Shown here piece after piece: positions 2,130-61,382 of a DNA stretch of 64,000 nt. The stretch is from contig JADGBR010000010.1 of assembly GCA_015231405.1 (NCBI GenBank), positions 14,489-78,488 of the forward strand, written 5' to 3'. The DNA comes from Candidatus Omnitrophota bacterium (GTDB lineage: Bacteria; Omnitrophota; Gorgyraeia; Tantalellales; Tantalellaceae). A program made the position numbers and the translations under genes. Position 1 is the first letter of the stretch. Every line of letters begins with the position of its first letter. The notes beneath the pieces were generated by a model. That model was not told the DNA's origin. It made no database searches and saw only the letters and a program-made list of their open reading frames with translations.

Positions 2130-3636
2130 GCTCTTTTTTCAGAAGATTAAGTATCTTTTTCTGAGCAATGACCTCGCAGAAAATCTTAACAATGCCCGGG
2201 TCGAACTGCGAGCCGCTATTCCGTTTGACCTCTTCGACCGCGGCGGATATAGACAGTGCCTTCCGGTAAGACTTCTTCGTGATCATCGCCTCAAAGGCAG
2301 AAATAACCGCCATCACCCTGGCGGCCAGAGGTATCTCCTCTTTCTTGAGCCCGCGAGGATAGCCGGTTCCGTTATAATTCTCGTGATGGTAAAGGATGAT
2401 AGGTATTATGGGTTTAAGGGCCTTCGATTTCGAGAGGATATCGGCACCTTTAAGGGTATGCTTTTTTATGATATCGAATTCGCTGCCTGTCAAAACACCC
2501 TTTTTCATTAAAAGTTTCTCGGGGATACTGATCTGGCCTGTGTCGTGAAGCATGGCCGCGTACTGCATCATTTTTATCTCCGTCTCGTTCATGTTCAATT
2601 TAAATCCGATCGTTTTGATAAGGTGCCTAAAAGAAGCTTCTGCCACGAACCCGCCGTGGGGCCTTGCCTGCAATAAGCCCGCTATGCACTGGATGCTGCT
2701 CATGGTAAGGCGTTCCTGCTCCTCGTAAAGCTGGGCGTTCTTAATGGCTGTGATGGCCTGTTCCGCCAGAGTTTCCATTATCTCGGAATCATTTTCAGCA
2801 AAAGAAGTCCCGTCGATCTTGTCGTATAATGTGATCACTCCAAGGACATCGCCCTCTATGAGAGGTGTGGCGAGGTAATTCCTGCCCATGATCGACCTGG
2901 ATTGTTTTACTGCACGGCCCGGGGCATACCTGCCAATGGCCACCTTTTTTAGCTTCGTTTTTGTGCTCCGGAGATCTATTGTGGCCACCGGAAGAAGAGT
3001 CTTCCTTTTTTTATCAAGGAGCTTTATGGAACAGCGGTAGGCTTTCATGACCTGCAGTGATAGCCTCGCTATCCTCGGTACCAGTTCGTTAAAATCCAGC
3101 GTCGAGCTCATCAGCCTGTGCAGCGTGTGGACCGTCGACAGGGCTAAAGCCCTAGGACGGATCGTTTCGTTGAGGTCCTCGATCTCCAGTTCCTTCCTGG
3201 ATTCCCTAACGGCCGCGTCCAAATGTTCCTGGTAGAACGCCAATATCTCATTCGAAAGAACGGACGTGACTCCAGCGATAACCACGGCTCCAAGGACATG
3301 GCCGTCGGATCTCAGGAAGAAAATATACCCCTTATTATTCCTGCTCGACCGGAACTCGCCGGACTGTTTTTCGTGATAAACCCCTTTAATAGACCTTAGA
3401 AGTATATCAAGATCTTTTCTCCCTTCGCTTTTCGCTATATCCCTCGATACCATCCATTTCTGGATATTAGCCCCCATGAGCTTGTGGTCGGATTCGGATA
3501 TAAGGGGCAGAAGCAGCCAGGCATGGGTGCCGAATAACCTCAAATGTCCGGAAAACCCGTTATCCTCCTGCCATCTTGAGCGCAATTTTTCGAAAAGCCT
3601 CTGTAAGTATATCCTTTCCTTCTTCTTGATGTTCAT
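2110..3636 (-). CDS. GAF domain-containing HD-GYP phosphodiesterase (c-di-GMP)
   Basis: 508 aa. The C-terminal HD domain carries AAMLHDTGQ and HHENYNGTGYP (the HD-GYP signature). A GAF-like region lies upstream. Confidence 0.8.
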   Translation of the reverse strand: MNIKKKERIYLQRLFEKLRSRWQEDNGFSGHLRLFGTHAWLLLPLISESDHKLMGANIQKWMVSRDIAKSEGRKDLDILLRSIKGVYHEKQSGEFRSSRNNKGYIFFLRSDGHVLGAVVIAGVTSVLSNEILAFYQEHLDAAVRESRKELEIEDLNETIRPRALALSTVHTLHRLMSSTLDFNELVPRIARLSLQVMKAYRCSIKLLDKKRKTLLPVATIDLRSTKTKLKKVAIGRYAPGRAVKQSRSIMGRNYLATPLIEGDVLGVITLYDKIDGTSFAENDSEIMETLAEQAITAIKNAQLYEEQERLTMSSIQCIAGLLQARPHGGFVAEASFRHLIKTIGFKLNMNETEIKMMQYAAMLHDTGQISIPEKLLMKKGVLTGSEFDIIKKHTLKGADILSKSKALKPIIPIILYHHENYNGTGYPRGLKKEEIPLAARVMAVISAFEAMITKKSYRKALSISAAVEEVKRNSGSQFDPGIVKIFCEVIAQKKILNLLKKELENDNK

Positions 3637-6940: not shown

Positions 6941-7015
6941 ATTGTTTGTTTCAGGTAAGCTGGTTACGTATAAATCCAAAAAAGGAAATCATAGCGTCAT
7001 TCTTCAATACATATA

Positions 7016-7044
7016 ATGATATGATATTTAGATACGGATGTCAA
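7016..7044 (-). promoter_or_regulatory. putative sigma70 promoter for the ATPase gene (TTGACA-N17-TATCAT)
   Basis: Read on the minus strand: TTGACA at 7044..7039, a 17-nt spacer, and TATCAT at 7021..7016, about 75 nt upstream of the M14 ATG. Confidence 0.3.
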
Positions 7045-7106
7045 TAAAAGACGGGGGTTATTGTTCCAAAAGATTGGAAAAACAAAGAATATATAAATGC
7101 GTTCTA

Positions 7107-7280
7107 AGCGCGAAGCCATGCGACACAACAAGAGCGAGCAAAGCCATGCGACACCAGCGAGCAAAGCCATGCGACACCAGCGAGCAAAGCCATGCGATAC
7201 ACCAGCGAGCAAAGCCATGCGATACACCAGCGAGCAAAGCCATGCGATACACCAGCGAGCAAAGCGATGCGATACAACGC
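7107..7280. repeat. tandem direct repeat array of about 7 units of 23-25 bp (AGCGAGCAAAGCCATGCGAyAC(AC)C)
   Basis: Two identical 23-bp units (7133-7178) and three identical 25-bp units (7179-7253), flanked by degenerate copies at each end. The units are contiguous with no spacers. Confidence 0.85.
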
Positions 7281-7332
7281 AATAAGAGTCACGTGCCCAT
7301 AAGGCACACAATTTTAGGGGAAAAGGGTTCTT

Positions 7333-7366
7333 AAGGGAAAGGGGGACATTACTCCCCCTTTCCCTT
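7333..7366. other. perfect 14-bp inverted repeat hairpin (AAGGGAAAGGGGGA-cattac-TCCCCCTTTCCCTT)
   Basis: Seen directly in the sequence. A second perfect palindrome GGGGGAACC-aa-GGTTCCCCC lies at about 7470-7489. Confidence 0.6.
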
Positions 7367-7493
7367 ATATCCCTGAAATAAAAATAACATGAAATAATAA
7401 TTGCACCAATAGGAGGGGGTGACAGTGAGCGAACCCGTTATTACCCGTCTACAAAGCGAACGCCAAGAGGGGGAACCAAGGTTCCCCCTATGG

Positions 7494-7560
7494 AAAAAAT
7501 TAGGGACGTCACCCATTTTCGTAATTCATCGCTATAAATGGGTGACGTCCCTAATTTTTT
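7494..7560. terminator. bidirectional intrinsic terminator (19-bp stem TTAGGGACGTCACCCATTT / AAATGGGTGACGTCCCTAA flanked by T-runs)
   Basis: The stem is followed by TTTTTT on the plus strand (7555-7560) and by TTTTTT on the minus strand (7499-7494). It lies immediately 3' of the minus-strand tRNA. Confidence 0.7.
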
Positions 7561-7634
7561 GGAGCGAGAGAGGGGAATCGAACCCCCGTAGCTAGCTTGG
7601 GAAGCTAGTGCACTACCATTGTGCTACTCTCGCT
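7560..7634 (-). tRNA. tRNA-Gly (anticodon CCC)
   Basis: The minus-strand sequence AGCGAGA-GT-AGCA..GTGC-A-CTAGC-TTCCCAA-GCTAG-CTAC-GGGGGTTCGATTCCCC-TCTCGCT-CCA folds as a cloverleaf with a T-loop GTTCGATTC. The anticodon loop TT-CCC-AA and the CCA end are encoded. Confidence 0.85.
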
Positions 7635-8532
7635 AAAACCTTACAAGGGACATAAGGGCCTTGTACCTTTGCCGGATGTCCCGATCTTTAACTTTTAAAA
7701 GGGCGTTCACGCTGAAATCCTCGACCGTAAACGACGCCAATATACTACCATATACCAGCGACCTTCTCAAGTCTCTATCTGTGATCCGGCGCTTACCCGC
7801 AAGATAACCCAGCATCCCGCCCCCGAAAGTGTCACCGGCGCCAGTGGGGTCGACGACCTTTTTAACGAGATAGACCGGGACCATGAACGAAAGTCCTCCG
7901 GAGAATAAAAGCGCTCCGTGTTCCCCTTTTTTGATCACTACCTTCTTTGCCCCTTTCGAAATGATATATCTGGCGGCGTCAAGCAGGTTCGACTCGCCTG
8001 AGAGCTGTCTGGCCTCCTCGTCGTTAAGAAGAAGGATATCGATCTTTCCCAGAAGTTTCAAGAGTTCCTTTTTCTTAGTCGCTATCCAATGGTCCATAGT
8101 ATCGCAAGCGACTATCCCCGTGGCTGAGACATTCTTGAATATCCAGCCCTGAAGCTCCGGATCGATATTCGCGAGAAAAAGGCTTCTTGCTTTACGGAGC
8201 TCAATGGGTATGACCGGCTTAAAACCCTCGAAAACATTCAACTTAACGCTCAGAGTATCTCTATGGATAAGGTCCTTATGGTATTTAGCTTCCCATCTGA
8301 AAGTTTCCCCGTCCTTCCTCTCTACACCCAGGGTATTTACCCCCCGTCCCCGGAATATTTCGTAATATTTCCGGGGGAAATCCGTGCCGACAACGCTTAT
8401 GAGATTCACCGGTGAAAAGAAAGAAGCTCCCAACGCGGCATACGTAGCTGACCCGCCAAGCACATTATTTTTCTTTCCGTACAAGGTCTCAACGGTGTCA
8501 AACGCGACCGAACCTATTATCGCCAGGGACAT
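7633..8532 (-). CDS. PfkB-family carbohydrate kinase
   Basis: The PfkB signature DPTGAGDTFGGG is near the C-terminus. The likely start is the ATG at 8532 (MSLAIIGSVAFD), which overlaps the thiC stop as TAATG. The track extension to 8604 overlaps thiC. Confidence 0.75.
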   Translation of the reverse strand: MSLAIIGSVAFDTVETLYGKKNNVLGGSATYAALGASFFSPVNLISVVGTDFPRKYYEIFRGRGVNTLGVERKDGETFRWEAKYHKDLIHRDTLSVKLNVFEGFKPVIPIELRKARSLFLANIDPELQGWIFKNVSATGIVACDTMDHWIATKKKELLKLLGKIDILLLNDEEARQLSGESNLLDAARYIISKGAKKVVIKKGEHGALLFSGGLSFMVPVYLVKKVVDPTGAGDTFGGGMLGYLAGKRRITDRDLRRSLVYGSILASFTVEDFSVNALLKVKDRDIRQRYKALMSLVRF

Positions 8533-9797: not shown

Positions 9798-10231
9798 TTA
9801 TGGAGGTCCCTGACCGCGGTCTTTTCTATGGAATATAAACTGAACCTGAATTTCTTGAATTGCTCCGAAAGCCGGCCGTCGAAAAGCTTCAGCACTTCCT
9901 CCAGCACGCGCAGTGATTCCTTACCCCTCTGGCTGTTGGCAAGGAATAAATCCACCAGGCCCTTTCTCTTTTTTTCGGACACTATACTTTTCTTCCCGAT
10001 ATCCATATGGACATCCCTCGAAGAAACAAGCTCTTCAAGATGATCCTCACGCAGCTTCTTGATCGCCGAGTATACGGAATGCCTTAAGGATTTCAATTTT
10101 GCCGTGCCCTTAGCGTCATCGGCCGAAAAACGGAGTATATCCTCGCAAACCCTCATACCTTCCATGACCCTGTTAAAATTTGCGTCTATTATCCTGTATA
10201 CGCCTTTATCTACAACTTTATCCACAACCAT
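9794..10231 (-). CDS. hypothetical protein, thiC-coupled (possible thiamin-related small protein)
   Basis: 145 aa with a 4-nt overlap with the thiC start. The N-terminus VYRIIDANFNRVMEGMRVCEDILRF resembles N-terminal extensions seen on some ThiE-like proteins. No assignment possible. Confidence 0.4.
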   Translation of the reverse strand: MVVDKVVDKGVYRIIDANFNRVMEGMRVCEDILRFSADDAKGTAKLKSLRHSVYSAIKKLREDHLEELVSSRDVHMDIGKKSIVSEKKRKGLVDLFLANSQRGKESLRVLEEVLKLFDGRLSEQFKKFRFSLYSIEKTAVRDLHK

Positions 10232-10261
10232 ATCCTTTTACGCCTTGCCGCAAATCCGGGG

Positions 10262-11337: not shown

Positions 11338-11418
11338 CATAGAATATAGGATCCAGAATAAAGCAACAATAAGACATTCCATAATTCCATAATTCCGTAT
11401 TCTGGATTCTATATTCTG
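11338..11418. repeat. long imperfect inverted repeat (about 21-bp arms, 37-nt loop containing a CCATAATTCC x2 direct repeat)
   Basis: Left arm CATAGAATATAGGATCCAGAATA and right arm TATTCTGGATTCTATATTCTG, with one mismatch. It lies between gmhA and the Asp23-like gene. Confidence 0.7.
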
Positions 11419-11441
11419 CATTCTGTCTACAAATCCCGGCG

Positions 11442-23669: not shown

Positions 23670-23692
23670 TCCCGCCTGGATAGGATCAGATA

Positions 23693-23746
23693 CCCGGAAT
23701 TCAGAATTCAGATCCCGGAACTCAGAAGCCAGGAGCCGGAATTTAG
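23693..23746. promoter_or_regulatory. three direct repeats CCGGAA(Y)T(Y)AGAA phased at exactly 21 bp
   Basis: CCGGAA at 23694, 23715 and 23736, in the 73-nt gap between the MshEN-domain gene stop and the pilB-2 start. Confidence 0.6.
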
Positions 23747-27253: not shown

Positions 27254-27308
27254 AGTGTCCTTTTAGCTTTTTCTCGTTCCCTCGGCATGCTGCCCTTATC
27301 AAGAAACG

Positions 27309-27377
27309 CGTGATTCGTGGTTCGTGGTTCGTTTCAAGTAATAGCCCCACCTTCCCGCACCACGAACCACGAATCAC
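27309..27377. repeat. palindromic intergenic element copy 1 (GTGATTCGTGGTTCGTGGT-N24-ACCACGAACCACGAATCAC)
   Basis: Near-perfect 19-bp arms, lying between the rodA stop and the radical SAM start. Confidence 0.8.
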
Positions 27378-27391
27378 AAATGTATATTTTC

Positions 27392-32676: not shown

Positions 32677-32756
32677 ATAATTTCTAAATAACGTGGAACG
32701 TGTGACATGGGACGAGAAATCTAGGACGTCCTACGTCCTACCCCGTCCTCCTTTAA

Positions 32757-40601: not shown

Positions 40602-40653
40602 CTCTACCTGCGCTTGCGCTTGATGACCAGGTACTAGTTTTAGGTTATAGATG

Positions 40654-40702
40654 TTAGGTTTTAGGTGTCAATGCTTTACAACAACGAACACCTAAAACCT
40701 AT
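40654..40702. other. intergenic hairpin (TTAGGTTTTAGGTGT-N19-ACACCTAAAACCTAT)
   Basis: 15-bp stem with one mismatch, between yggU and yggT. Confidence 0.55.
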
Positions 40703-40709
40703 AAACCAG

Positions 40710-58870: not shown

Positions 58871-58930
58871 TCGGAATTGTGACGGAAATTGAAAAGCAAA
58901 TGGGCTCGAGTCGATTGAAAAAGATTTTTC

Positions 58931-58998
58931 TGGTTCGTGATTCGTGGTTCGTAAAAATGTACCCTACAAAAACCGAATCACGGACCACGATCCACGAA
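58931..58998. repeat. palindromic intergenic element copy 2 (TGGTTCGTGATTCGTGGTTCG-N22-CGAATCACGGACCACGATCCACGAA)
   Basis: Imperfect arms of about 20 bp, between the PilZ gene and the dcw promoter. Confidence 0.7.
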
Positions 58999-59091
58999 AC
59001 ACTATTGTATTAACGCGAAAAAAAATGCTGGAATGGAAAAATCACATGGGAACGTTCACTTCCTGAAGATCATCCCGGAAAGAAACGAATA

Positions 59092-61253: not shown

Positions 61254-61339
61254 TTTGATACCTTCCCTTTTAAGTTAGTTGCGTTCAACAAGGAAACAAC
61301 GGACATAATTATACATACAAACCCGGAGGTTGTCGAGAG

Positions 61340-61382
61340 TTAGCGGTTTGCGTGTTAGCGGTTAGCGATTAGCGATTAGCGG
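61340..61382. repeat. tandem heptamer repeats TTAGCGR (4 perfect plus 2 variant copies)
   Basis: TTAGCGG TTTGCGT g TTAGCGG TTAGCGA TTAGCGA TTAGCGG, upstream of the GH130 gene. Confidence 0.8.

Follow-up and report, generated by a model that had tools for sequence, protein, structure and literature searches.

What is a run of near-identical direct repeats doing between a tRNA gene and the promoter of an ATPase gene, and how did it arise? The locus lies in a 64,000-nt stretch of DNA from a Candidatus Omnitrophota bacterium (GenBank assembly GCA_015231405.1, contig JADGBR010000010.1, positions 14,489–78,488 of the forward strand), hereafter the window, in which all coordinates are counted from the first nucleotide. 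Its largest gene-free gap is a 619-bp spacer between the gene of an AAA+ ATPase and tRNA-Gly(CCC), and this spacer holds an array of 23- and 25-bp tandem repeats next to several hairpins. A preliminary description, drawn up from the letters alone, had offered an iteron-like binding-site array, a small-RNA locus or a scar of integration at the tRNA as explanations. The array is genuine, lineage-specific and non-coding, and it is a bacterial intergenic minisatellite, a kind of element already known. We consider it somewhat probable, at little better than an even chance, that this minisatellite is young, was born by slippage and has no sequence-specific function; at most, it may serve as a spacer of variable length ahead of the ATPase promoter.

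Structure and uniqueness of the repeat array

Tandem Repeats Finder (TRF), which had been proposed as a check, recovers the array at 7133–7276 with a period of 25, 5.9 copies, 97% matches and a score of 253, and it is by far the strongest of the window, where every other TRF array scores 70 or less. The 19-mer core of the unit, AGCGAGCAAAGCCATGCGA, occurs six times (five exact occurrences and one with a single mismatch), in the array only, compared with 0.00 occurrences in shuffled sequences, and the starts of successive copies are spaced by 23, 23, 25, 25 and 25 bp. Read in register, the array bears out the preliminary count of about seven contiguous copies at 7107–7280, in which two 23-bp units precede three 25-bp units. 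The 23-bp units terminate in GACACC and the 25-bp units in GATACACC; the five inner copies are perfect, and both terminal copies are degenerate. The unit exceeds the minimum of 10 bp expected of a minisatellite, is arranged head to tail and shows high identity between copies. The units are contiguous, without intervening spacers, so that the array is not a CRISPR, as had been recognized from the start. Within each unit, two sub-repeats centred on GCGA recur at distances of 14 and 11 bp. On the plus strand the unit is T-poor, and the array folds no better than shuffled sequences (z of +0.73, and –1.14 for the minus strand).

The spacer shows no sign of coding for protein. Ten open reading frames (ORFs) of at least 30 aa overlap positions 6985–7555, eight of them inside the spacer, and all eight traverse repeats or hairpins. 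The four spacer ORFs compared with Pfam gave no match, and none of the eight is present in a collection of 15 billion proteins (exact look-up). The proteins on either side, MBF0216477.1 and MBF0216478.1, carry consecutive accessions, and therefore no coding sequence is annotated between them. Neither repeat period, 23 or 25 bp, is divisible by 3. The earlier statement that the region has no credible ORF is confirmed by these results, and no protein-coding gene spans it in the source genome.

Several coding candidates were set aside individually. A plus-strand ORF at 7419–7595 with a strong AGGAGG-GTG start was rejected because it reads across the bidirectional terminator and on along the antisense strand of the tRNA gene. 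This 58-codon frame, which opens with GTG after the strong Shine-Dalgarno-like AGGAGGGGG (7407–7595 together), is probably no gene; a weak promoter-like site lies at 7373–7401, and a short plus-strand transcript running to the terminator is possible. An ORF through the repeats (7097–7285), reminiscent of the basic repeat peptide ‘Tpr’ of Escherichia coli tyrT, was rejected for want of a ribosome-binding site, and a pseudogene of the LysM-M23 lipoprotein found at this position in distant relatives was rejected because tblastn gave no signal in the window spacer.

The array unit is confined to this locus within the DNA examined. Neither BLAST of the spacer against the window nor the 19-mer search detected the unit elsewhere in the 64 kb, and no copy with up to four mismatches was found in 84 related Omnitrophota loci. 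The possibility that the unit is a common dispersed repeat, which the preliminary description had named as a finding that would sever the array from its locus, was accordingly rejected, as the window BLAST and the fuzzy searches for the unit and for each hairpin in the 84 loci were all negative. The exact 19-mer has 16 isolated single matches, attributed to chance, in metagenome contigs, with unrelated flanks and several of them within one conserved coding gene, and none of the 16 is a tandem copy. The unit has no match in a viral contig collection or in plasmid and phage collections, where the sole match of any sort is a 32-bp segment outside the array on an Enterococcus plasmid.

The comparison of the locus in relatives that had been recommended gave matching gene order, but neither homology of the spacer nor its motif. 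The spacer between the tRNA and the ATPase gene is seldom alignable across species, ranges from 28 to 1056 nt among 27 near-clade loci and in the window exceeds most near-clade spacers in length; no sequence of the relatives aligns to the window spacer. A motif in common with the 14-mer array of the related locus L002 was considered and rejected: the best register gives 10/14 identities around a TATCGYAT core, which is not significant given the number of registers, and no such motif was seen in other relatives.

Origin of the array and its alternatives

Identical inner blocks flanked by degenerate edge copies are a textbook sign that an array has lately expanded by slippage or unequal exchange. 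The present array fits this picture, as its inner copies are 100% identical, the two variants occur in blocks and the terminal copies are degenerate. An ancestral segment of about 25 bp would have been duplicated head to tail via slipped-strand mispairing or unequal exchange, and the inner copies would have stayed identical in blocks, two of 23 bp and three of 25 bp, while the outer two, beyond the reach of homogenization by slippage, would have decayed. The array occupies a fast-evolving spacer, after the ThiC-PfkB-tRNA-Gly(CCC) unit with its very strong terminator and before the separate promoter of the ATPase operon, and the hairpins probably act as a series of stops or insulators that keep transcription of the tRNA unit from running on.

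Several observations weigh against an origin as inert, slippage-born DNA. In about 738 kb of Omnitrophota sequence this is the best-scoring array with at least three copies and the sole intergenic array with a 25-bp period, and it is atypical of a background dominated by heptamers. The nearest ATPase homologue is only 66% identical, so that conservation could not reveal a species-specific regulatory site, and the search for further copies in the source genome spanned 64 kb. The array lies at –63 to –236 from the –35 element of the ATPase promoter, a distance typical of upstream activator sites, and the two GCGA-centred sub-repeats of each unit could be tandem half-sites. These last points would suit an array of cis-regulatory sites, in which a factor bound to the direct repeats controls the ATPase promoter 63 bp downstream, an explanation that we regard as unlikely. 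The promoter is a well-supported and positionally conserved sigma-70 promoter, the array offers six near-identical direct repeats with two sub-repeats each, and another array of the window, CGCTAAN x6 (61339–61382), likewise stands directly upstream of a promoter-like site. However, the ATPase gene is kept at 50–66% identity across the near clade, yet the relatives have no common upstream motif or array. Selection on contact bases would not account for identity across all 19–25 positions as readily as a recent duplication does. The periods of 23 and 25 bp correspond to 2.2 and 2.4 helical turns and would place successive sites on different faces of the helix, and the 23-bp variant alters the spacing of the sub-repeats. 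The motif has no further copy in the 64 kb. The more specific proposal of an iteron-like array is unsupported: iterons follow the helical repeat, with a spacing of about 11 or 22 bp, whereas the spacing here is out of register and shifts from 23 to 25 bp, the copies are identical, the motif is absent from the 84 relatives, and the neighbouring gene encodes a Pfam ATPase_2 AAA+ protein instead of a Rep initiator. A replicon context is missing as well: the GC skew does not switch at 7 kb, plasmids and phages show no similarity, and the chromosomal synteny is conserved. It is highly improbable that the array is a functional multi-site landing pad, or an example of a functional class of Omnitrophota intergenic repeats, rather than inert DNA. 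If the landing-pad version were true, the Orc1/Cdc6-like ATPase would load on the array, giving autoregulation or an origin- or partition-like site; in the broader version, the array would be the longest-unit member of an undescribed class, mostly heptamer-based, similar to the short tandemly repeated repetitive (STRR) sequences of cyanobacteria and often forming hairpins after stop codons, and such repeats could insulate or terminate transcription in compact genomes.

Other explanations make the array a transcript, a relic or an error. A small RNA that carries the repeats, such as an A/C-rich plus-strand sponge for protein or RNA that ends at the hairpins or the terminator, would draw on the bidirectional terminator, which makes plus-strand transcription towards the tRNA possible, on the weak plus-strand promoter-like site mentioned above and on the T-poor, unstructured plus strand of the unit, a property of many sponge RNAs. 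We find it improbable. No other promoter-like site exists on the plus strand, and this one follows the array instead of preceding it; the promoter scan detected no sigma-70-like promoter facing the array on either strand, so that the array is not bracketed by a promoter and terminator of its own. The Rfam scan that had been suggested, at E ≤ 10, brought only the tRNA above threshold in the window and nothing in the array, and Rfam likewise found no known RNA beyond the tRNA at 14 related loci; the folding scores given above and the lack of alignable relatives offer no conserved structure. The array is not conserved in relatives, and no GGA or ARN runs were noticed on inspection of the unit by eye. 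The small-RNA proposal of the preliminary description consequently finds no support, and its third suggestion, integration at the tRNA, fares no better. The spacer and its array would then be the remnant of a mobile element that entered at tRNA-Gly(CCC), as tRNA genes are classic integration sites; in the related locus L021 the tRNA 3′ end recurs, with 17/18 identities, 154 nt beyond the tRNA, contig ends of relatives bunch within 1 kb upstream of the ATPase gene (14 of 76 loci, versus 4 within 1 kb downstream), L102 and L104 break at the same base, and the window spacer is longer than most near-clade ones. Against this, the window holds no second tRNA 3′ end (18-mer and 25-mer searches, up to three mismatches), a test that works because it recovered the duplicate of L021; there is no integrase or other mobile gene nearby, the gene order is unbroken and matches L002 and L101, and the spacer has neither plasmid or phage similarity nor a remnant of the LysM-M23 gene of the distant clade. 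We therefore hold an integration scar to be very improbable. Finally, the array or its copy number could be an artefact of short-read metagenome assembly, since the contig comes from a metagenome-assembled genome (MAG), de Bruijn assemblers are prone to errors in tandem repeats and the same spacer is where several related assemblies break. The array is nevertheless interior to a 91-kb contig, and its longest run of identical units, 75 bp, lies between distinguishable variants, so that 150-nt reads and the usual k-mers should resolve it. Collapse or expansion during assembly does not produce decayed terminal copies and two variant blocks, and an artefact has only a slender chance.

The surrounding locus in the window and in relatives

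Table 1. Repeat copies, hairpins, promoter and genes at the tRNA-Gly(CCC)–ATPase locus, in window coordinates
Feature	Position	Strand	Basis
AAA+ ATPase gene (Pfam ATPase_2/AAA_16), 543 aa	5309–6940	–	Pfam; 100% identical to MBF0216477.1 (Ca. Omnitrophica MAG)
Sigma-70-type promoter of the ATPase gene, TTGACA-17-TATCAT, 11/12	7044–7016	–	promoter scan
Decayed first repeat copy (AGCGCGAAGCCATGCGACACAACAAG)	7107–7132		repeat-family analysis and sequence reading
Two identical 23-bp units (AGCGAGCAAAGCCATGCGACACC)	7133–7155, 7156–7178		TRF, 19-mer search, repeat-family analysis
Three identical 25-bp units (AGCGAGCAAAGCCATGCGATACACC)	7179–7203, 7204–7228, 7229–7253		TRF, 19-mer search, repeat-family analysis
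Last copy, 2 mismatches (AGCGAGCAAAGCGATGCGATACAAC)	7254–7278		19-mer and fuzzy unit searches
Small hairpin, GTGCC/GGCAC core 7293–7307, terminator-like on the minus strand	7289–7311	–	promoter scan and folding
Perfect 15-bp-stem hairpin, 6-nt loop	7332–7367 (arms 7332–7346/7353–7367)		inverted-repeat search; segment z –5.4/–5.7
Perfect G+C-rich GGGGGAACC palindrome	7468–7489 (10-nt arms 7468–7477/7480–7489)		inverted-repeat search and folding
Bidirectional intrinsic terminator, 25-nt perfect arms	7494–7560 (7494–7518/7536–7560)		inverted-repeat search and folding
tRNA-Gly(CCC)	7560–7633	–	ARAGORN; Rfam 70.3 bits; sequence
PfkB-family sugar kinase gene, last protein gene of the ThiC-PfkB-tRNA unit	7633–8532	–	Pfam; MBF0216478.1

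Read along the minus strand, on which nearly all genes of the window lie, the locus runs from ThiC and PfkB through tRNA-Gly, the terminator, three hairpins, the array and the sigma-70 promoter to the ATPase gene and a gene for a YfcE-like phosphodiesterase that overlaps it by 4 nt (Table 1). The array had been placed about 60–240 bp upstream of a putative ATPase promoter, and the measured distance to the –35 element is 63–236 bp. A TTGACA-16/17-TAxxAT site recurs 60–125 nt upstream of the ATPase ATG in many near-clade relatives. A sigma-54 promoter with enhancer sites was also considered and dismissed, as no GG-N10-GC element was found on reading the sequence. The neighbouring genes (ThiC, PfkB, ATPase, YfcE-like, dGTPase-like and HD-GAF) follow the gene order of L002, and the ThiC-PfkB-tRNA-ATPase-phosphodiesterase order is kept in both L002 and L101.

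The cumulative GC skew of the window falls steadily to about 61 kb, far from the array, and a replication origin at 7 kb was rejected, as there is no skew switch. A 12-bp tandem repeat at 10204–10235 includes one perfect match to the DnaA box (TTATCCACA) and a second copy that differs by one base; this DnaA-box-like pair (10206–10226) codes for VVDK-VVDK at the 5′ end of a minus-strand ORF and is most likely coincidental.

The ATPase, an uncharacterized protein, is conserved throughout the phylum: a scan of species-representative genomes yielded 541 encoded relatives, most of them 50–59% identical to the window protein; identity is 50–66% across the near clade and 35–44% in the distant clade. 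Its AlphaFold2 model (predicted local distance difference test score, 85.8) comprises an AAA+ domain, a winged helix and a C-terminal alpha/beta domain, and the closest folds in the PDB are 2qen and 2fna, two uncharacterized archaeal ATPases, followed by Orc1/Cdc6. From this model, a DNA-binding neighbour of the array is conceivable. A sequence-profile search found no solved relative, and neither NCBIfam nor PADLOC matched the ATPase. A defence-system context was rejected, as PADLOC matched the HD protein alone, which is of the dGTPase type.

The stacked hairpins were largely as described before, with some changes in size. The GTGCC-cataa-GGCAC palindrome stands at 7293–7307. The hairpin given a 14-bp stem at 7333–7366 exists but is longer, with perfect 15-nt arms, and the GGGGGAACC palindrome, reported at about 7470–7489, begins slightly earlier and has 10-nt arms; in effect, it folds into a stem of 9 bp and a loop of 4 nt. 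The bidirectional terminator is likewise real, but the stem of 19 bp ascribed to it is only the core of perfect 25-nt arms that include A6/T6, and its final base is the 3′ A of tRNA-Gly(CCC). Segments with hairpins are far more stable than shuffled sequences (z of –5.4 to –8.65), and chance would produce neither the array nor the hairpins and terminator. Long perfect tRNA-proximal terminators of a comparable kind occur in L010 and L021, and relatives with long spacers combine a long perfect terminator with additional perfect hairpins 3′ of the tRNA. The stacked hairpins may thus best be read as the tRNA terminator followed by back-up stops or insulators on the minus strand. At its other end, the tRNA gene shares a base with its neighbour, the stop codon TAG of PfkB donating its G as position +1 of tRNA-Gly (7633–7635). 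The stop codon overlaps or abuts the tRNA start in 9 of the 47 relatives examined, with a 1-nt overlap in L009, L012, L014, L043 and L079 and abutment in L022, L027, L047 and L061. Because the stop codon shares or abuts the +1 position, RNase P processing of a PfkB-tRNA co-transcript would cut the mRNA in or at the stop codon.

Among 81 related loci, 50 have tRNA-Gly(CCC) upstream of the ATPase gene on the same strand, sometimes just 28–31 nt away. In the distant clade (L051–L084), a gene for a lipoprotein of about 220 aa with LysM and M23 peptidase domains (NlpD-like) lies between the tRNA and the ATPase gene; it is absent from the near clade and the window. The duplicate in L021 (3341–3358) is accompanied by larger duplicated blocks, 53-bp repeats at 3524–3634, and looks like an att-type scar at the same tRNA. 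L102 and L104, which come from different samples, break about 65 nt past the tRNA, and two other assemblies read through this breakpoint with identical sequence. Together with the clustering of contig ends, these breaks suggest strain-level structural variation at tRNA-Gly.

Tandem repeats in Omnitrophota and in known systems

The array stands in a repeat-rich background. In the non-coding DNA of the window and 84 loci, about 69.5 kb altogether, we counted 51 non-overlapping arrays with a TRF score of at least 40, compared with 1–4 in dinucleotide shuffles, an excess of about 20-fold, and 23 of the 51 have periods of 7, 14, 21 or 28. The tRNA-ATPase spacer as a hotspot of tandem repeats was rejected, as the near-clade spacers carry 0.58 arrays per kb and all non-coding DNA 0.73 per kb. 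Unrelated arrays occur in the tRNA-ATPase spacers of L002 (14 nt x 4.5), L013 (ATCAGTT x 5 and its complement x 9.9, which form a giant hairpin), L021 (53 nt x 2.2) and L027 (14 nt x 2). The 25-mer array belongs to this general repeat tendency of Omnitrophota non-coding DNA, although it is atypical in period. A full-text literature search found no published description of tandem-repeat richness in Omnitrophota, and the richness of their non-coding DNA in heptamer repeats is, to our knowledge, undescribed.

Further short tandem repeats of the window lie at 11376–11425, 23686–23741, 27309–27377, 32726–32741, 40637–40668, 58934–58952 and 61339–61382, and likewise in L013, L064, L016, L018, L083 and others. 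Most sizeable intergenic gaps of the window contain heptamer repeats, several of them as hairpins with heptamer arms after a stop codon. Terminator-like hairpins of this design stand directly 3′ of stop codons at 27254–27391, 58871–59091 and 40640–40709 (minus strand), with the arms TTCGTGG/CCACGAA at two sites and TAGGTTT/AAACCTA at one, and a hairpin built in this way separates tRNA-Gly from the ATPase start in L013 (ATCAGTT x5 ... AACTGAT x10). Tandem ATCAGTT is found about 5–30 nt downstream of tRNA-Gly(CCC) in both L013 (3844–3878) and L064 (3272–3297), which are distantly related, their ATPases being 56% and 38% identical to that of the window.

In itself, the array matters little and may at most serve as a strain-typing marker for an uncultivated Omnitrophota lineage. 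Its context is of greater value, namely the heptamer-repeat excess, the linkage of the tRNA and the ATPase gene across the phylum and the stop codon that shares a base with the tRNA. The tRNA-ATPase spacer is a hotspot of turnover: its length changes, the repeats in it are unrelated, one relative has an att-like duplicate there, and assemblies break in it.

Cyanobacterial STRR heptanucleotide repeats have been used for fingerprinting (PMC5088731). Omnitrophota non-coding DNA is similarly repeat-rich, with 23 of 51 arrays having periods that are multiples of a heptamer, and the STRR-type repeats of the window (periods of 7, 14 or 21) and the 25-mer array are both intergenic, in a terminator-to-promoter position. 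The array departs from STRR in its period of 23/25 instead of 7 bp and in its unit, which is unique rather than a genome-wide heptamer. Iterons of plasmids and phages and the centromere repeats of type Ib par systems resemble it in that several direct repeats, each about 20 bp long, precede the gene of an NTPase with a winged-helix domain. Unlike those systems, the locus has no protein of the Rep or ParA families and is chromosomal with conserved synteny, and its repeats have a shifting period off the helical register, identical copies and no equivalent in relatives.

In the distal repeats of E. coli tyrT (178 bp x 3.14, located behind a tRNA gene), every unit includes a piece of the tRNA 3′ end and is transcribed together with the tRNA. 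The array is likewise a tandem array downstream of a tRNA gene, but here a strong terminator with 25-nt arms and three more hairpins separate it from the tRNA, and its unit has no tRNA-like segment or significant tRNA similarity, the hexamer CTCGCT alone being in common. Copy-number polymorphism is the operational hallmark of variable-number tandem repeat (VNTR) loci. Compared with the mycobacterial interspersed repetitive units (MIRU) that form such loci in Mycobacterium tuberculosis, the array unit belongs to no dispersed family within the DNA examined. The array nevertheless shares with MIRU-type VNTR loci the intergenic, head-to-tail arrangement of units of tens of bp, and its near-identical inner copies, decayed edges, non-coding nature and lineage-specificity are also those of a MIRU/VNTR-like locus.

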